Virus record (IMG/VR): IMGVR_UViG_2563366923_000005
DNA length: 16,693 nucleotides
Source of the DNA: a virus
Lineage: Duplodnaviria > Heunggongvirae > Uroviricota > Caudoviricetes
Direction: 5' to 3' (one strand)
Position numbers and translations under genes: made by a program. Under the pieces are notes generated by a model. The model was given only the letters and a program-made list of their open reading frames with translations. It ran no database searches and had not been told where the DNA came from. Shown piece after piece: positions 7,694 through 14,308 of this stretch (the stretch's first letter is position 1; every line of letters starts with the position of its first letter).

Positions 7694-7732
7694 TAATAAC
7701 CTCTTTATTTTTCACGTATATATACAGAACTA

Positions 7733-8011
7733 TGTTGGTTCAGTTAGTTCAGTTGGTTCAATTTGTAAAGATGATTGTTTTATAATGATTATTTCCCGTT
7801 GAGTGAACCAACAAAGCCCCGATTTGAACCAACATTGGGTATTTTCATGTTGGTTCAGTCCATGAGGTTCTAAAATGTTGGTTCAAACTGCCCGTTTGTT
7901 GGTTCAAAACTGCTATTTGTTGGTTCAGTGTTGGTTCATTTTTTGACATTAAACCCATATAAAACAGCCACATGAACATAACCCATAGACACTGAACCAA
8001 CTGAACCAACA
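7733..8011. repeat. Iteron array / replication origin (ori)
   Basis: About 10 copies of TGTTGGTTCA or its reverse complement TGAACCAACA at 7733, 7752, 7804, 7824, 7849, 7876, 7897, 7918, 7929 and 8002, with AT-rich spacers, directly downstream of the replication gene. Confidence 0.8.
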
Positions 8012-8034
8012 TTAATAACCCTCACATGTGTAAT

Positions 8035-10170
8035 TTATTCTTCTCCATCTTCCGCAACCTGGTGAAGCACATAAACGTTGATTTGACGCCCATCAATACG
8101 CGGGGATTTCTGCTGGTATCCACGCCCGCTGGACGGCTCAGAAAGCAAGCCAGCAGCGGCAAGCACGCGGGCAAACTGCCTGGCGTTAAAGCCCTGAGCT
8201 ATCTCCTTCTCAAACGTTGCGGGGAACGTATAGAACACCAGCGGCGAATCATCATGGCTGCTTTTGCGCTTTCGATACCCGGCCAGATCGCGAATCGGCA
8301 TACTGGACGGATCATAGGGCAACGGTGCAAAGCGGCTTAAACCGTAGGCATTCAGGAACGCCTCGCACTGCTCGATGATCTGCTGGTGCTCTTTGTTACC
8401 CGTGCCGAACTCTTTCACCCAGGCGTTAAAGCTATGCTGGATAGCGTCACGGCTGGCCTGTTCACTCCATCCGGTGATTGATGCACCAGTTACCAGCGCG
8501 GCTTCGAGGATTGCAAAGCGTTCGGCCACGCGGTGTACCTGCTCACCGTAATCCGCCGGGATGAGGCCGCGCCAGCGCGTTTGCGCGTCACGCACCGCCT
8601 GTTTAGCCTCCTGCTGGTTAGCCGCCAGCCATTTAACCCACTCACGCCCCGCCGCCCCGTGGTTATCAATCCAGGCTTCTTTCAGTGCGTCAGCATGAGC
8701 CTTGCCGTTTGGCAGACCGTTAAAGGCCGTCGATTTCTCCATAGGGATGTTGAGCAAGCGCACCAGTTGGCCCGCTTTCACTTTCAGCCCACCAGCAGCC
8801 AGGAAGGTTTCAATATCCATTTCCCCGGTGCTGATCGCCACAGTGCGCCAGCGTTTAAGCTCCCGATTGCCGCCCTCTTTGGCTCCCTGCAACTTTCCGG
8901 CACCGTTAAACAGGGTGTAAGCAGACGTGGCAACATCTTTGGCACTGCTGCCCTGTCCTACCTCATCAAGCGGTAACAGGCTGTCGTTATGCGCCTCCGC
9001 TTCGTTTGCTATGCCAAGCGCAGTACCGTACCAGGTAAGCCGCAACGCATCAGGCTCACCCCACAGGCTGCTCGCAATATTGGCGGTAGTGGTCTTACCG
9101 GCGCTCGACTGCTCGAACAAATGGACGCCGAAACCATCAGCACCCACCAGGCCAATAAGCGGCGCGGATAATGCCGCTGCCACGCCCAGCATCATGGACG
9201 GATTGCCCCCGGCCAGACGGGCGACGGAATCCCGCCAGGTGGCAGCAGTACCAGCAATGGCATACCCGGAAGATGCAGCGCTGCGACCGTTAAAGAGAAT
9301 GGGCGTCTCTGGATCACCAATCACTTCACCATCAGGCATGATATATGCGCCATGATGCCAGCCAGTGGTATGGGTGATAATCCATTCCCGATCAGTGCCG
9401 CTTTGCTGCAACCAGTCGGCCAGAATCGCCCGGAAGGTGCTTTTAGTGGTCACATTCACCCCACCAGCTTTAAGTGAGCGCCAGCCGTCGCGCTCACCGA
9501 TATCAGCACAGGGGATCGCCCTGGTAATATCTTCATGGCCACGCGGCGAACGCCAGCGCAAAACAAGATAGCGCTCTGCCCCGTCACTACCGGAGCCGAC
9601 CACCTCAAGAGGCGAGCACAGCCACGTTTCGTTATTGATGATCTCGCCACTATCCTTGTCCACCTTTGGCGTGATCCAGTACAGGCCATCGCTCCGGCTC
9701 TCCACGCGGGGTTTGAGTTCATCGCCCGGTTCAGGCTTTGGCTCCCGTTTTTTTACAGGCAGGTTCACCACAATGCTTTCCCCGCGTTCGGCCTCTTCTT
9801 TGAGACGTGGAAGCCTGCCCGTCCAGTCCTCCTTCGGCTGAGGCTCAAACATGCCATTAAACAGCCTGGCCTCTTTCACATCCGCCAGCGCCAGTTTGGT
9901 TGCGATAGTGCTTATCTGCATTTCGGAAAGTTCGCCAGCGCGGATCACACGAACACTGCGACGGCCGTTATCAACAATGTTTAACCGTTCCAGTTCCGCA
10001 AGTTGCCTTTTACCCAGATAAACAGGCGGTACATCATCCCATGCCCTTTTACCTTCGCTCTCGATCCAGTGCTGCACATGTGAATAGGCATCTTCACCCG
10101 CAAAGATAATCGCCTCTGTAAATTTATCTTTCGGCAGGAATTTAATATTCGGGGCATTCTTCATCTTCAT
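8035..10170 (-). CDS. Replication initiator / primase-helicase (DUF927-type P-loop NTPase)
   Basis: 711 aa with Walker A motif FEQSSAGKTT. Size and position (last gene of the operon, next to the iterons) match satellite or PICI Rep proteins. AAGGTG RBS; start overlaps the upstream gene's stop (ATGA). Confidence 0.85.
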   Translation of the reverse strand: MKMKNAPNIKFLPKDKFTEAIIFAGEDAYSHVQHWIESEGKRAWDDVPPVYLGKRQLAELERLNIVDNGRRSVRVIRAGELSEMQISTIATKLALADVKEARLFNGMFEPQPKEDWTGRLPRLKEEAERGESIVVNLPVKKREPKPEPGDELKPRVESRSDGLYWITPKVDKDSGEIINNETWLCSPLEVVGSGSDGAERYLVLRWRSPRGHEDITRAIPCADIGERDGWRSLKAGGVNVTTKSTFRAILADWLQQSGTDREWIITHTTGWHHGAYIMPDGEVIGDPETPILFNGRSAASSGYAIAGTAATWRDSVARLAGGNPSMMLGVAAALSAPLIGLVGADGFGVHLFEQSSAGKTTTANIASSLWGEPDALRLTWYGTALGIANEAEAHNDSLLPLDEVGQGSSAKDVATSAYTLFNGAGKLQGAKEGGNRELKRWRTVAISTGEMDIETFLAAGGLKVKAGQLVRLLNIPMEKSTAFNGLPNGKAHADALKEAWIDNHGAAGREWVKWLAANQQEAKQAVRDAQTRWRGLIPADYGEQVHRVAERFAILEAALVTGASITGWSEQASRDAIQHSFNAWVKEFGTGNKEHQQIIEQCEAFLNAYGLSRFAPLPYDPSSMPIRDLAGYRKRKSSHDDSPLVFYTFPATFEKEIAQGFNARQFARVLAAAGLLSEPSSGRGYQQKSPRIDGRQINVYVLHQVAEDGEE

Positions 10171-10535
10171 CAGTGCAACACCTTATTGGACATATCCGCG
10201 CCCAGGTCTTCATGCAGGTACTCAAGGTGGCAGCTTTTCACTATCTGCAACCCCATTTCGTTAATATCGCCATCGTCGGTAAAGCAGGTCAGCAGAATAT
10301 CCCGCAAACGCCTTAACCCCTCATCGCGCCCGAACTCTTCAAAGCAGCCAAAAATCATATACTTCATCAATACGTTTTCAGTTACGCGCGGCTCCAGCGT
10401 GAAGCGATAGCGGGCCATATACTTATCGCTTTCCACCAGCAAGGTTGCCGAACCGGTTTCCGCTGTCTGGTGAGCAATACAGGCTTCGGTCAGTTTGCGG
10501 AACAATGGGCCTATCACTTCAAAAATATCGGTCAT
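10170..10535 (-). CDS. Hypothetical protein (replication-operon member)
   Basis: 121-aa ORF; its stop overlaps the rep start and its start overlaps the upstream gene's stop. No recognisable motif. Confidence 0.6.
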   Translation of the reverse strand: MTDIFEVIGPLFRKLTEACIAHQTAETGSATLLVESDKYMARYRFTLEPRVTENVLMKYMIFGCFEEFGRDEGLRRLRDILLTCFTDDGDINEMGLQIVKSCHLEYLHEDLGADMSNKVLH

Positions 10536-10900
10536 TGTGGGATACCTCCGCTCATCTGAAATTTGCCAAGTAATGGGTGATACCAGTATGCAGAGCCATA
10601 TTTGCGCTTAGCACTGCGCAGCACCAACCGTGCCGCTTCCCTGAACTTTTCATCAGGTGCAACGAACCCGCCTGATTTCAGTTTAACCAGCATCACCCCT
10701 GTGTTTTTCGCCAGCTCCTCAGCCTTTTTGGTTGAGATACCGTATTCAGCAGCCAGTGTTGCTACTGGCGTCATACCCGGAGGGATTTCTCCGCCCTGAC
10801 TATCGGTAAGTGATTTAACCTGAGCCTCAAGGCGCAAGACCTTCTCAACCAGCAGATCAACGCGGTTAGCCAGTTCGTTAAACTTCACATTGCTGATCAT
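10532..10900 (-). CDS. Hypothetical protein, possible DNA-binding (HTH-like segment)
   Basis: 122 aa with an N-terminal coiled-coil-like region and a possible helix-turn-helix (TPVATLAAEYGISTKKAEELAK). Start ATG overlaps the upstream stop (ATGA). Confidence 0.6.
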   Translation of the reverse strand: MISNVKFNELANRVDLLVEKVLRLEAQVKSLTDSQGGEIPPGMTPVATLAAEYGISTKKAEELAKNTGVMLVKLKSGGFVAPDEKFREAARLVLRSAKRKYGSAYWYHPLLGKFQMSGGIPQ

Positions 10901-11124
10901 GGTCTTGCCTCCTGAGTTTCAGGGTCTGAAAAAGTAGAAATATCCAGTGAGTTTGCCAGTTCGTCAGAAAGGCGCTGAGCCAGGTGCGTTAAACTCATAA
11001 CATGGATACGCTCCGCCTCCCCCTTGATAGTTGAAAGGTAAGCAGCACATGACATGAGCGCAGCAACCTCTTGCGCCAGCAACAGCAAATCTTTTTTGCT
11101 GCGGTAGGTGTAAAAGTTATCCAT
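10897..11124 (-). CDS. Hypothetical small protein
   Basis: 75 aa from ATG at 11122-11124 (MDNFYTYRSKK). The track extension to 11184 overlaps the upstream gene and is judged less likely. Confidence 0.5.
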   Translation of the reverse strand: MDNFYTYRSKKDLLLLAQEVAALMSCAAYLSTIKGEAERIHVMSLTHLAQRLSDELANSLDISTFSDPETQEARP

Positions 11125-11314
11125 TGAGCGCCCCCTTTTTATCCTGCTCCAGCATAAAGGTGGCAATATCGCCAGAAATATCACGGGCCAGATCGATGAG
11201 GTTATCCCTCTCGTGACCTGAAATTTCGCAGTCTGAAATCACCAGAAGCAACGTTGCCAACTGACAAGCGCGGGACGTGGCTTTTTCTCTGCCAAGAGTT
11301 TCAATGTCATACAT
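11117..11314 (-). CDS. Hypothetical small protein
   Basis: 65-aa ORF whose start overlaps the Icd-like gene's stop. Part of a chain of overlapping start/stop codons. Confidence 0.5.
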   Translation of the reverse strand: MYDIETLGREKATSRACQLATLLLVISDCEISGHERDNLIDLARDISGDIATFMLEQDKKGALNG

Positions 11315-11519
11315 GTCGCACCTCCAGCATCTGAAATGCGTGGAACGGCAGGCGGGCAGCGAAAATAAGAGTTACGCCGGGCATGGTGTCGCGGGCTTCC
11401 CGTTCACTGGATGCGTTGACGTAAATCACCAACGGTTTGGCGGTAGGGTAGCGCTCAGAGGCGGAGAGAAAACGCCATGTAAATTCAGGGCGAGTTTGGG
11501 TAGACTGATTGTCAGCCAT
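11307..11519 (-). CDS. Icd-like small protein (P4/P1 family, putative cell-division inhibitor homolog)
   Basis: 70 aa from ATG at 11517-11519 (MADNQSTQTRPEFTWRF...FAARLPFHAFQMLEVRHV) with GAGGT RBS. The FTW and FAARLP pattern matches Icd-like proteins of P4-like elements as I recall them. The 250-aa track ORF is a spurious upstream extension. Confidence 0.55.
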   Translation of the reverse strand: MADNQSTQTRPEFTWRFLSASERYPTAKPLVIYVNASSEREARDTMPGVTLIFAARLPFHAFQMLEVRHV

Positions 11520-11709
11520 AACTGTTACCTCACTTAACGGTTTGTGGTCAGAGGCCCGGTTAGTGTTCCTAGCACTACCGGGCTTCGCACTTGAAAGGTG
11601 TATGTCACCTTTAATATTCAAACTAGCCCAAAGTGAAATACACTTCAAGCCTTTTTCTTTTATTTTTTTTGCGTATACTGAAATACACCTAACATAAGGA
11701 GTTTCAGTA
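11520..11709. promoter_or_regulatory. Divergent promoter / operator region
   Basis: Bulged palindrome GCCCGGTTAGTG-N7-CACTACCGGGC (11554-11583); 7-bp inverted repeat AAAGGTG-N5-CACCTTT (11594-11612); direct repeat TGAAATACAC at 11634-11643 and 11679-11688, the second next to a TATACT -10-like hexamer (11674-11679); long T tract at 11651-11670. Confidence 0.45.
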
Positions 11710-11895
11710 ATGGCAACAGGTGCGAAGAATGCAAAGTCACAAATGACCACAGTTCGAATCCCCCATGATGTGATGGAAGATATCGAACTTTTTAAACATG
11801 AAGGTGAAAGTACCGCAGGGTTTCTTGTCACTGCTGCGAAAGGCGAAATCAAACGCCGCCAGCGCCAAAAGGCAAAAGAAGAGCCAAAATCCTGA
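11710..11895 (+). CDS. Small ribbon-helix-helix-like DNA-binding protein (putative island regulator)
   Basis: 61-aa ORF with AAGGAG 9 nt upstream. TTVRIPHDVMEDIELFKHEGESTAGFLVTAAKGEI fits a beta-strand plus two helices (RHH/Arc-like), followed by a basic tail. Divergent from the replication operon. Confidence 0.55.
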   Translation: MATGAKNAKSQMTTVRIPHDVMEDIELFKHEGESTAGFLVTAAKGEIKRRQRQKAKEEPKS

Positions 11896-11902
11896 ATAAA
11901 AT

Positions 11903-11925
11903 CAGCGGGCGCAGAATTGCGCTGG
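11903..11925. terminator. Weak hairpin downstream of the RHH gene
   Basis: GCGCA-GAAT-TGCGC stem-loop (alternative CAGCG/CGCTG pairing) 8 nt after the stop codon. The U-tract is poor, so terminator function is uncertain. Confidence 0.25.
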
Positions 11926-12018
11926 CTCATTCTTTGACCACCAGCATTAACCCTGGTATGCTTAATCTGTTTCGGTTTTTCGTAGTGACATTGGCAGCTC
12001 TGCAAAGTTGCCTTTGTT

Positions 12019-12798
12019 TTATTCAGCGTCAGCATTCGGCACCTCCGGCAATACGCCACCAGCGATCAGTTTCTTCGTTAACCACTGCTCCCCCTTCCCC
12101 GTCAGCATCGTTGTGAATGAGGCTCTTACTTCGCCATTCGTTTCATACGTTCCCTGGCGAACGGCAAAATAACCGCTATCGATATAACGCTGCATAGGCA
12201 GGTTGTGGCGCTGGCCACCGTTGATGAGAATCCCCTGTTGCCTCATCCAGCCGAATAATTTGAAGGGGCCAAGCCCTACGGCTTTGGCATAGTTGGAAAT
12301 GGAAATACCCTTGCTGATCTCCGCAACGCGATCAGCGAAATCAACTTTTGGCGCAGCGGCCACCAGCCGGTTTTCAAGTTCGCTTGCCTTTTCGGCCAGA
12401 TCAGCAGCAAGGCGCAGGGCTTCCGGTAACGTCTGGGGGATATTAGCGGCGGCTTTTGCCTGGCGTTCGCAGTTGATGAAGTAGCGGCGCACCTCCCGCC
12501 CTTTTTCGTTGCGCTCAACCATTGCCAGCTCTTTACCCATGTCGATGGTGATCAGGTAATCATGTGCAATTTGTTGGCGATATTTTGCGCTCCCCGAAAC
12601 GGGGGCGCTCAAATTTTCAACCACCGTAAAATCTACACCAGCAGTAAAACCATACTGGCTGATACGCCCCTTAATCCATGTGGTGAAATCACGCCCAACG
12701 CCGAGAAACTCATGGAGTTTTTTTGCACTGACCAGCGATACCGTCACGCCGCCAATATTTCCGGGGTTAACCGGAACCAACTCATTTAATTTTTGCAT
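12019..12798 (-). CDS. Phage antirepressor (AntA N-terminal domain + KilAC C-terminal domain)
   Basis: 259 aa from ATG at 12796-12798. HDYLITIDMGKELAMVERNEKGREVRRYFINCERQ matches the AntA signature; C-terminal NLPMQRYIDSGYFAVRQGTYETNGEVRASFTTMLTGKGEQWLTKKL matches the KilAC/ANT pattern. Confidence 0.85.
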   Translation of the reverse strand: MQKLNELVPVNPGNIGGVTVSLVSAKKLHEFLGVGRDFTTWIKGRISQYGFTAGVDFTVVENLSAPVSGSAKYRQQIAHDYLITIDMGKELAMVERNEKGREVRRYFINCERQAKAAANIPQTLPEALRLAADLAEKASELENRLVAAAPKVDFADRVAEISKGISISNYAKAVGLGPFKLFGWMRQQGILINGGQRHNLPMQRYIDSGYFAVRQGTYETNGEVRASFTTMLTGKGEQWLTKKLIAGGVLPEVPNADAE

Positions 12799-12808
12799 AG
12801 CGCCCCCC

Positions 12809-13093
12809 TTACGCGGATTTACGGTTGTAAGGGGTGTTGACGTTCTCAACAGCAGGTGGATTGCGAACCCACCAAAGAACATCTGACAGAAGCCATGCGC
12901 AACTATTACGGCCAAAGTGGCAGCGTGGCGGGAATTTACCTTCGTTCTCCATATACCAGCGGGTGGAACGGGAAAGGCTGGTTATTTCGAAGCATTCACT
13001 TTCACGAATACGGCGATCAAACTTAATGCCATATTCTGCGAGAATGGTGCGGCGTTGTTCTGGTGTTGGCGGGGTAAAACGAGTATTTGACAT
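12809..13093 (-). CDS. alpA: AlpA-family transcriptional regulator (excisionase-like)
   Basis: 94 aa; LSRSTRWYMENEGKFPP...GRNSCAWLLSDVLWW fits the AlpA HTH pattern. GGAGGA RBS. Immediately upstream of the antirepressor gene. Confidence 0.8.
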   Translation of the reverse strand: MSNTRFTPPTPEQRRTILAEYGIKFDRRIRESECFEITSLSRSTRWYMENEGKFPPRCHFGRNSCAWLLSDVLWWVRNPPAVENVNTPYNRKSA

Positions 13094-13187
13094 ACTTCCT
13101 CCACTTAACGCAATCAGAAGGAGCCTTTCCTGTCTGTTCTTGCGTTGTGGGGGAAGTATTTGTCTAAAGTAAATTAATAAAAATGGC

Positions 13188-13264
13188 TTCTAAAATTTAA
13201 AAAGGCGTGTTTAATTCTAAAAAGGGTAATCTAATGATTAGAACACCCTTTCTAACGTTTAGAA
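13188..13264. repeat. Cluster of TTCTAA / TTAGAA hexamers in the alpA upstream region
   Basis: TTCTAA at 13188, 13215 and 13250; TTAGAA at 13238 and 13259, including TTAGAA-CACCCT-TTCTAA-CGT-TTAGAA. AT-rich 180-bp intergenic region. Confidence 0.3.
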
Positions 13265-13274
13265 GCTACTACAA

Positions 13275-14216
13275 TTAAAACTTAAAGTGCCTACTAATGT
13301 ATGAGGTAATTGTGTCAACGCTCTTGACCGGGCATTGTCCGTCAGGAAATAAGTGCACTCTGTCGGAAAGTTCTCTGGCCCATGCTGAGAAATTGTAGCT
13401 CCCATCTTTTTTCAAGCACTTTTCATTGAAAATATCAGAATTTGTTTCTTTGAATTTTATTGCAGCACTTAAAATTAATAGTTCATTTCGTGCATGTTTT
13501 TCTTTTGCACTTTCTGAGCGTTTATTAATACTATTTTTTGAATCAGAGTCTAAATCAGGTCGTTCAATATCATTGAGCATTGGCAGCTTATCGAAATCAA
13601 GGCCGCTTTCCATAAGCCGTTTAATATCATAATTAGTAACCCATAAATCATCATACCCGGCTTCAAACTCATAAGGGTCGAAATTAAACCTCTTGCCATT
13701 AGCCTGATCGATAAAAGGTTGGGCTGGCAGAATCTGAATTACTGGAGTTTCACCGCCTGTGAGGCACGGGAAAAATCCGGGGAAAAAATCCTTCACAGGT
13801 AAAGATGACTCAAACTGATCGGGCATTACCCGCCACAGACCTAATGCAAAGCCATATCCGACAAGGAACCCTTTACTTTCTTGTTCCGTAAAGATGTCTG
13901 AACCAGATAATAGTTTATCAGGTTCAAAATAACGGCCATTAGTAAATTCAATAAAAGAGTGATTCGTTATCGCGCGGGTTTGCCCTGACATAGAATTAAA
14001 AGTACGAGGAAAATATAGTGATGAATACCAATCCTTTACATCATTAAAATCTTCACGAAGAAGGATTCGGCAGTGAAACCTTTTCAGCATCATGCTTATT
14101 TCGATTTTATTTTCAATAGCAAGGTTGATCAAATCTGACGGTTCAACCCCCAGAAATGATGCACCTCTGGACAATCTACAATATGAAAATGGAATCTTTA
14201 TTTCTTTTTCTGCCAT
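13275..14216 (-). CDS. Hypothetical protein, AT-rich cargo gene between int and alpA (candidate defence / accessory function)
   Basis: 313-aa ORF with GAGGG RBS. 27% GC in a sampled 60 nt, far below the head genes. No family recognised by eye. Contains YDDLWVTNYDIK, a D-x8-D-x-K arrangement weakly reminiscent of a PD-(D/E)xK core. Confidence 0.65.
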   Translation of the reverse strand: MAEKEIKIPFSYCRLSRGASFLGVEPSDLINLAIENKIEISMMLKRFHCRILLREDFNDVKDWYSSLYFPRTFNSMSGQTRAITNHSFIEFTNGRYFEPDKLLSGSDIFTEQESKGFLVGYGFALGLWRVMPDQFESSLPVKDFFPGFFPCLTGGETPVIQILPAQPFIDQANGKRFNFDPYEFEAGYDDLWVTNYDIKRLMESGLDFDKLPMLNDIERPDLDSDSKNSINKRSESAKEKHARNELLILSAAIKFKETNSDIFNEKCLKKDGSYNFSAWARELSDRVHLFPDGQCPVKSVDTITSYISRHFKF

Positions 14217-14308
14217 AACGCTACCCTCAACGCCCCTAATTAACTTGCGAGCCAGGCGGGTAGGGTTTCCCGCTTTTCGGTTGGCCGACCTAGACTCGCA
14301 AGACCAGT

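Follow-up and report, generated by a model that had tools for sequence, protein, structure and literature searches.

Overlapping small genes ahead of the replicase gene of an Escherichia coli satellite, and a candidate antisense RNA at the start of the chain

The locus

The virus record IMGVR_UViG_2563366923_000005 (Caudoviricetes), a stretch of 16,693 nucleotides here called the window, is 100% identical to a chromosomal segment of Escherichia coli KFu015 and contains a phage satellite. We here deal with five consecutive small genes of this satellite, G1 to G5, which precede the gene of its replicase (rep). An earlier note, made from the letters of this DNA, had described the five as chained to each other and to rep by overlapping start and stop codons. 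This is indeed the case: the overlaps on the minus strand measure 8, 8, 4, 4 and 1 nt, and the NCBI Prokaryotic Genome Annotation Pipeline (PGAP) calls exactly the same coding sequences in the identical region of KFu015. The junctions turn out to be conserved in related satellites where the genes are exchanged, and a candidate antisense RNA lies over the start of the first gene. The features are compiled in Table 1.

Table 1. Features of the small-gene chain and its surroundings (positions of the window)
Feature	Position	Strand	Remark
Iteron array TGTTGGTTCA	7730..8015	both orientations	directly downstream of rep
rep, DUF927 helicase-type replicase, 711 aa	8035..10170	-	ATG overlaps the stop of G5 by one base
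G5, 121 aa	10170..10535	-	ATGA from G4, TGATG into rep
G4, 122 aa	10532..10900	-	ATGA overlaps at both ends
G3, 75 aa	10897..11124	-	8-nt overlap with G2
G2, 65 aa	11117..11314	-	8-nt overlap with G1
G1, Icd-like, 70 aa	11307..11519	-	first open reading frame of the operon
Candidate cis-antisense RNA	11514..11606	+	covariance-model match, 80.8 bits; likely about 75-80 nt, with its end near 11590
Putative G1-rep operon promoter, TTGAAG-17-TAGTTT	11620..11648	-	read from sequence; interleaved with operator-like repeats
YlcI/YnfO-family gene, 61 aa, divergent	11710..11895	+	NCBIfam NF041551, 1.1e-16

The junctions of the chain

From G1 to rep the junctions read ATGTATGA (8 nt), ATGGATAA (8 nt), ATGA, ATGA and TGATG (1 nt). 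Shine-Dalgarno (SD)-like motifs (GAGG, GGAGG, GGGGG, AGGAGG, GGAGG and AAGGTG) are found 6-10 nt before the starts, and the motif of each downstream start is inside the upstream open reading frame (ORF). The C-terminus of G1, for instance, ...EVRHV*, encodes both the SD motif and the overlapping start of G2. The junctions carry all the sequence hallmarks of translational coupling by termination and reinitiation, i.e., overlap of start and stop plus an SD motif in the upstream ORF.

All five junctions of the chain overlap, versus three of the seven same-strand junctions in the packaging module of the island. The rate usually quoted for co-directional bacterial gene pairs is roughly 15-30%. With so low a general rate, five consecutive overlaps are unlikely to be due to chance.

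Relatives were compared in a genome set of 64 loci and in a second, separate set of 80 IMG/VR loci. Most of their junctions overlap by 8, 4 or 1 nt, and overlaps are therefore the norm for this type of operon: the genome set yielded 110 overlaps of 4 nt, 81 of 8 nt and 25 of 1 nt, the IMG/VR set 139 of 8 nt and 93 of 4 nt. All six E. coli islands display the series 8/8/4/4/1 regardless of the genes involved, the one among them that is devoid of G5, that of strain 2022CK-00450 (L061), having 8/8/4/4. An SD-like motif lies 5-16 nt upstream of the start in 157 of the 158 distinct 8-nt junctions of the relatives and in 151 of the 165 distinct 4-nt ones. The 8-nt junction (ATGnnTGA) has the consensus aGGaGGtg..cCATGc.TGA. 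Because this consensus is conserved, unrelated upstream proteins end alike, in ...EVRHA, ...EVSHA and so on. The signals persist where the flanking genes have been swapped for unrelated ones. By analogy with the boundary sequences of lambdoid phages, these conserved junctions of about 20 nt may be exchange points for modules.

A mosaic of small genes

The genes between the junctions are far less constant. A search with rep revealed 57 related islands in other species. In these, tblastn found a single match to G2 and a single one to G4; neither G3 nor G5 had a match in any of them. The Icd-like gene is present in many of the rep-related islands, in 39 loci when three Icd queries were used.

Among E. 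coli islands, the segment from within G1 to the end of G3 is swapped as a cassette, the forms of which are 20-50% identical. The surroundings of the swapped cassette are well preserved: the DNA of the leader is about 90% identical, G5 97-98% and rep 91-100%, and the G4 protein is 84-95% identical despite saturated synonymous sites. L061 possesses the same G1 to G4 and runs by an ATGA directly into a RepA-type (AAA_25) helicase, without G5.

The small proteins of all chains fall into about 25 families that are shuffled among the islands. The IMG/VR set comprises 79 chains, in 67 of which one to five small genes lead to a protein of 400 aa or more. The gene that follows a G4 homologue in this set is an AAA_25 helicase in 10 cases, a DUF927 replicase in seven, G5 in five and a D5_N/DUF5906 protein in three. 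Four types of replicase can end a chain: DUF927, AAA_25, D5_N/DUF5906 and Zn-ribbon-Toprim-D5_N. The design shared by about 140 related enterobacterial satellites is an Icd-like ORF, followed by one to five exchangeable small ORFs and then by a replicase. A single tight association exists in the chain: in 10 of the 10 occurrences seen, G5 stands before a DUF927 replicase. Judged from the loci compared, the conserved feature of this operon family is the junction signals, not the genes.

The earlier note had taken the tight overlaps as a sign of fixed stoichiometry. This would mean a complex of Rep with the five proteins, the composition of which is set by coupled translation. The tightness of the overlaps and the restriction of G5 to DUF927 replicases are compatible with such a complex, yet the mosaic speaks against it. 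G4 occurs without G5 and before at least three types of replicase (AAA_25, D5_N/DUF5906 and DUF927), G2 to G5 are absent, with few exceptions, from the 57 islands with a related rep in other species, the G1-G3 cassette is exchanged wholesale between otherwise near-identical islands, and the origin iterons (see below) track rep rather than G4 or G5. With a set of small genes that is mosaic around constant junction signals, a stoichiometric complex of fixed composition is unlikely, and we consider this part of the note very improbable.

The replicases are composite, too. Residues 1-140 of Rep (window 9750-10170, minus strand; MKxAPNxKxxPKDKFTE...) match phrog_2850 and no Pfam family. This N-terminal domain of about 140 residues recurs on three helicase cores (DUF927, AAA_25 and D5_N/DUF5906), as in L103, L112, L134 and others.

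The control region and the antisense RNA motif

The 90 nt that precede the start of G1 contain two hairpins, which 15 "type A" islands have in common. Folded as the sense strand, the alignment yields -16.0 kcal/mol, and the cells that do not pair are mostly C-A or A-C. Folded as the antisense strand, it yields -27.1 kcal/mol and 19 pairs, and compensatory changes occur in seven of these; C-A cells of the sense strand become G.U pairs, and many sequences have a U-rich tail after the 3' hairpin.

In the window, the 5' part of the motif is the complement of the start codon and SD motif of G1. The loop of the 5' hairpin (hairpin 2; 11528-11534, CCUCACU) is an anti-SD, being complementary to the SD of G1, while hairpin 1 (11551-11586) looks like a terminator. 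A -10-like element lies at a suitable distance within the first codons of G1; it reads TGnTATGAT in one class of sequences and TATGCT or TAGACT in the other. In the window it is TAGACT (11501-11506).

A covariance model derived from this alignment found exactly one match per locus in 31 of the 64 loci of the genome set, always on the strand opposite to rep. In the 80 IMG/VR loci it found 81 matches, each over the ATG that opens an Icd-like ORF. The homologues of the motif (29 plus 55 distinct sequences) have 97.6-97.8% of their cells paired, and 8-10 of the 19 pairs show compensatory change. None of 500 shuffles reached the observed pairing and covariation, and slid controls pair at 37-47%. 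In the window and about 110 relatives, the motif is placed precisely over the SD and start codon of the Icd-like gene.

The hairpins might also act in the sense mRNA, be it as a structure of the 5' untranslated region or as an attenuator. They do sit in the leader of G1, where the SD of the sense strand would be exposed or hidden by hairpin 2. The pairing, however, is worse in this orientation: in the first set (A5) 489 of 551 cells pair, a single one as G.U, compared with 539 of 551, including 51 G.U, on the antisense strand. The consensus energy quoted above is likewise less favourable, and the U-rich tail follows the hairpin on the antisense strand alone. We therefore regard a role in the sense mRNA as improbable. 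The best reading of the motif, deduced from its pairing and position, is a cis-antisense RNA over the ribosome binding site (RBS) and start of G1.

The only Rfam family that matches at this site is SymR (RF01809), and this match is below threshold (32.1 bits versus a gathering score of 61; E 1.8e-4 to 5e-4). C4 and isrK (RF01695, RF01394) have no match in the window at the gathering score. Four relatives with a replicase of about 920 aa (L015, L031, L040 and L046) have isrK and C4 directly before the Icd-like gene, with 70-78 bits, and L046 additionally has c4-a1b1 upstream of it. Since these RNAs precede Icd-like genes in relatives, the operon family is tied to the RNA immunity of the P1/P4 type.

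Further upstream, between the G1 operon and the divergent YlcI/YnfO gene, operator-like repeats are found in 11594-11700: TGAAATACAC is present twice, together with the palindrome AGGTGTATGTCACCT. A consensus scan for promoter- and terminator-like sites in 7900-13300 revealed no excess over shuffled sequence. It did not report the putative G1-rep promoter, because only 7 of the 12 positions of the latter match. Relatives have TTGACA at the equivalent position, with island-specific repeats. Such repeats at the same place suggest a protein regulator with island-specific operators, and the YlcI/YnfO protein is a candidate for a small DNA-binding regulator of the shared control region.

Two relatives show variations of this arrangement. 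In plasmid pECO-6dfa (L064, NZ_CP026200.1; 2694-3414), the leader/antisense module recurs with a YlcI-like gene (86% identity to window 11416-11582) and is followed by an ORF of 105 aa, the gene of a WYL-domain protein and a BREX system; here the control region appears to be reused to drive a defence locus. Of the 48 matches in E. coli, 32 are plasmid-borne. An IMG/VR contig (L067) has two copies of the antisense motif, at 9679-9774 and 10471-10560, about 800 nt apart, and an artefactual ORF of 442 aa spans two Icd-like segments. The control module may have been duplicated in tandem there.

The small genes and their products

The ORFs, whose integrity in related islands the earlier note had made its touchstone, are intact in every relative examined, including all ORFs in the five E. 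coli relatives L059-L063, and frameshifted copies were not found among them. The ratio of nonsynonymous to synonymous substitution rates (dN/dS), taken against L061 for the first three genes, is 0.12 for G1, 0.46 for G2 and 0.18 for G3; it is 0.03-0.07 for G4, with synonymous sites (dS) saturated, and 0.11-0.27 for G5. G2 is the fastest-evolving gene of the chain: it is only 46% identical at the amino acid level between islands whose neighbouring genes are 87-88% identical. Lengths are well kept in homologues. At the 50% clustering level of 1.84 billion proteins, G2 has 10 representatives of 60-65 aa. The G3 homologues form 69 protein clusters, nearly all of 75 aa. G4 has 420 clusters, with 122 aa in all of the 120 listed, and G5 has 25 clusters, mostly of 120-121 aa and all at least 68% identical. 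Spurious ORFs were considered and rejected in view of the conserved lengths and of dN/dS below 1. By these measures all five are real protein genes.

G1 belongs to the Icd-like family NCBIfam NF033153 (61.5 bits at a cut-off of 25, E 5.7e-17, residues 13-58), in agreement with its PGAP name, and is 42% identical to the Icd of phage D6 (E 3e-4). P1 Icd blocks cell division by binding FtsZ (PMC11897509). By analogy, G1 is a probable inhibitor of cell division.

The G2 profile (F15) matches that of family F10 with 97.5% and has weaker links to F3, F20 and F21. These families make up a loose superfamily of proteins of 60-75 aa, which often occur in tandem. For G3, neither Pfam nor NCBIfam nor PHROG has a match, and no relatives are detectable beyond its own family. 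G2 and G3 were considered as paralogues; the link to G3 proved not significant (E 0.004 over 20 columns). Many NCBI records label the 75-aa homologues of G3 (P0147-P0201) as "aminotransferase". The name is implausible for a protein of 75 aa without a Pfam domain, and it is probably a misannotation that has been propagated widely.

That four of the five products have no recognisable function, as stated in the earlier note, holds at the level of sequence. At the level of the fold, G4 looks like a winged-helix DNA binder. In the AlphaFold2 model of G4 (predicted local distance difference test, pLDDT, 67.5), a long helix at the N-terminus precedes a beta-helix-helix-wing domain, after which come another helix and a beta hairpin. 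In Foldseek the central domain matches BldC, RacA, the Xis of mycobacteriophage Pukovnik and the Par of pSK1 (probability 0.94-0.99, TM score on the target 0.65-0.78, but E no better than 0.05-0.5). G4 also matches phrog_6610 and has no Pfam match above threshold. We read the model as a coiled coil joined to a putative winged-helix DNA binder of the MerR/excisionase (Xis) type. G5 is modelled with confidence as an alpha/beta fold (pLDDT 90.1), for which neither PDB nor BFVD has a significant counterpart (best E 0.17 and 0.43); weak matches resembling ribosomal protein S7 have TM scores of about 0.36-0.40. A sequence search of PDB gave no match for G4 or G5. The idea that G4 and G5 are split-off pieces of the longer replicases of about 920 aa was dropped, as no similarity was found. 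Rep itself matches Pfam DUF927 (4.7e-50) and phrog_1139, DNA primase (1e-184).

The earlier note had also thought of helper-sensing or helper-manipulating factors. The small proteins, chiefly those of the variable G1-G2-G3 cassette, might target the helper phage or the host by sensing, interference or division arrest, and their diversity would then stem from an arms race. The divergence of the cassette next to near-constant G5 and rep, the dN/dS of G2, the tandem arrays of the loose G2 superfamily and the action of P1 Icd on FtsZ (PMC11897509) can be cited for this; for the sensing of a helper as such, the one argument is the fast divergence of the cassette. No match to known families of anti-phage defence was found, however, with the PADLOC hidden Markov models, be it for G1 to G5 or for the neighbouring hypothetical genes, and no dN/dS exceeds 1. 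We consider such targeting somewhat unlikely; it concerns the function of the proteins and is compatible with both the operon model and the compaction view given below.

How the chain might work

We lean towards a model, built on sequence features, in which the translation of G1 is gated by the RNA and relayed down the overlapping chain to rep. The operon would be transcribed from the weak promoter TTGAAG-17-TAGTTT (11648-11620). The anti-SD loop of the antisense RNA would pair with the initiation region of G1, which then stays untranslated. With the start of every later gene placed on the stop of the one before, the lack of G1 translation would propagate to rep: reinitiation would be lost, Rho-dependent polarity would add to the effect, and rep and the replication of the island would be off. 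Upon induction, transcription would exceed the antisense RNA, and all six proteins would be made together. The overlaps would then be the transmission line for one regulated RBS, possibly also linkers for the swap of modules, and not a sign of fixed stoichiometry.

The behaviour of P1 may serve as a precedent. Work of Riedel and colleagues from 1993 is said to have found that translation of icd is required for the expression of ant in this phage. The repression of P1 ant needs C4 RNA, and icd takes part in the regulation of ant (PMC8198154).

Several observations speak against the model. The predicted accessibility of the RBS at the internal starts, 0.19-0.44, does not clearly differ from that at random positions (0.39 +/- 0.12). 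A good SD precedes each internal start, which makes independent initiation possible. The tail after the terminator-like hairpin is just weakly U-rich in the window (CUUCGCACUU), and the proposed antisense promoter has a poor -35. As the -10-like element sits in coding sequence, its conservation may partly reflect the peptide. Finally, alignments made with a covariance model are fitted to that model, and the IMG/VR loci were retrieved with a pattern derived from the antisense motif, although the 3' half of the hairpin was not part of this pattern.

Some of these points would suit a simpler explanation, namely that the overlaps result from pressure on the size of a satellite of about 15 kb, each gene using its own SD, and have no regulatory meaning. 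SD-like motifs are indeed present at nearly every junction, the accessibility resembles that of random sites, and the packaging module of the same island has overlapping junctions too. Compaction alone, however, hardly accounts for a stereotyped junction (the 8-nt ATGnnTGA after ...EVxHx*) that survives the replacement of both flanking genes, nor for a first ORF that is always Icd-like and always the one under an RNA element, C4 or the antisense motif. We rate it as somewhat unlikely, a little more so than the targeting of helper or host, and hold to relayed translation of G1 as our working model.

More tentatively, and with some reserve, we suggest that the two-hairpin element represents a new family of cis-antisense RNAs. 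It could be the silencing or immunity switch of many enterobacterial satellites, i.e., phage-inducible chromosomal islands (PICIs), their capsid-forming variants (cf-PICIs) and P4-like relatives. There it would replace C4/CI RNA and hold the chain and the replicase off until a helper arrives, and the same module would have been borrowed for the WYL-BREX locus of the plasmid.

The island and the origin

The island of about 15.6 kb is inserted between fis and yhdJ in KFu015. Its minus strand begins with int, a hypothetical gene, alpA and an Ant/KilAC antirepressor gene; the YlcI/YnfO gene, on the opposite strand, is placed between the latter and the five small genes. After G1 to G5 and the DUF927 replicase come two hypothetical genes and a packaging module with the major capsid protein, prohead protease, portal, head-tail connector, HNH, TerS and TerL. 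Tail genes are absent from the island in the PGAP annotation of the identical KFu015 region. Domain and profile searches detected AlpA, DUF927 and Ant domains in proteins of the window. By gene content, the island is a cf-PICI. The five small genes and rep are the promoter-proximal part of its early (replication) operon. For EcCIEDL933, it has been demonstrated that a helper phage induces the island via alpA and that the island is transferred in capsids of its own, which carry helper tails (10.1101/2022.09.08.507074).

The TGTTGGTTCA array comprises 9 exact copies and at least 14 if near copies are included. The motif is held by 44 of the 64 loci, and in the great majority its cluster follows rep, with or without G4 and G5. 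The array is a probable origin of replication, as its repeats and position suggest. G4 was considered as the binder of these iterons and rejected, as the array follows rep in loci that mostly lack G4; L061, which has G4, is devoid of the array.

One further observation may be added. An int-alpA RNA (Rfam RF02996, 63.6 bits) lies at 14233-14300 on the minus strand, between int and the hypothetical gene, which encodes 313 aa.

Significance

How the replication genes of Gram-negative PICIs and cf-PICIs are silenced and switched on is partly understood; AlpA is required. We know of no repressor of these genes. The passages searched in the recent cf-PICI papers contain no dissection of the small genes that lie from alpA to rep (10.1101/2022.09.08.507074, 10.1101/2025.02.11.637232), and the gene downstream of alpA is described as variable and of unknown function (10.1101/2025.02.11.637232). 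Our literature search yielded nothing specific on these small genes or on antisense RNA at Icd-like genes.

An overlapping chain by itself is ordinary for phage-like early operons such as P1 immI, the left operon of P4 and the early operons of PICIs. What is new is that a single operon design is common to about 140 satellites with four types of replicase, and that the small genes are interchangeable cargo joined by conserved junction signals. New, too, is a structured antisense motif, absent from Rfam, in one branch of a family whose cousins have C4. This element sits on the single RBS that could control all downstream genes. Beside the replicase, two proteins deserve attention: G4, a predicted DNA binder that is very strongly conserved, and G5 with its orphan fold.

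Comparison with known systems

The closest parallel is the immI operon of P1/P7 (c4 RNA - icd - ant1/2). Both begin with a small ORF of the Icd type, an RNA regulator (here a candidate) acts at the RBS of this ORF, and the start of the following gene lies within icd or at its end; in P1 this following gene reportedly depends on the translation of icd. Moreover, island relatives carry true C4, isrK and c4-a1b1 before the Icd-like gene. The systems differ in their payload, which is an antirepressor in P1 and a set of small genes plus a replicase here. The window lacks C4 and isrK and instead has a cis-encoded motif on the opposite strand, and G1 is just distantly related to phage Icd (42% to that of D6).

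The left (alpha) operon of P4 with its CI RNA immunity is likewise an early operon of a satellite, in which several small ORFs are followed by a primase-helicase, under the control of a small RNA from the C4 clan. Some relatives of our island even end in a Zn-ribbon/Toprim/D5_N protein that resembles P4 alpha. In the window, by contrast, the replicase is of the DUF927 type and CI/C4 RNA is absent. Also, the island has int, alpA and capsid genes of its own, whereas P4-like elements have sid, psu and delta.

With the cf-PICIs, EcCIEDL933 being the prototype, the island shares int, alpA and rep, a capsid and packaging set, the lack of tail genes and a size of about 15.6 kb. A phage record from the EDL933 strain (ATCC 43895) matches the window over 86 nt alone, i.e., the 5' end of G1 and the leader.

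Finally, the pair SymR/SymE also features a short RNA opposite the 5' end of a small gene. This RNA covers the SD as well as the start, and its end is formed by a terminator hairpin. The score of 32 bits, however, stays far below the gathering value of 61, the similarity is mostly in the hairpin, and no SymE-like protein is found here. The resemblance to SymR is probably one of analogy, not of homology.

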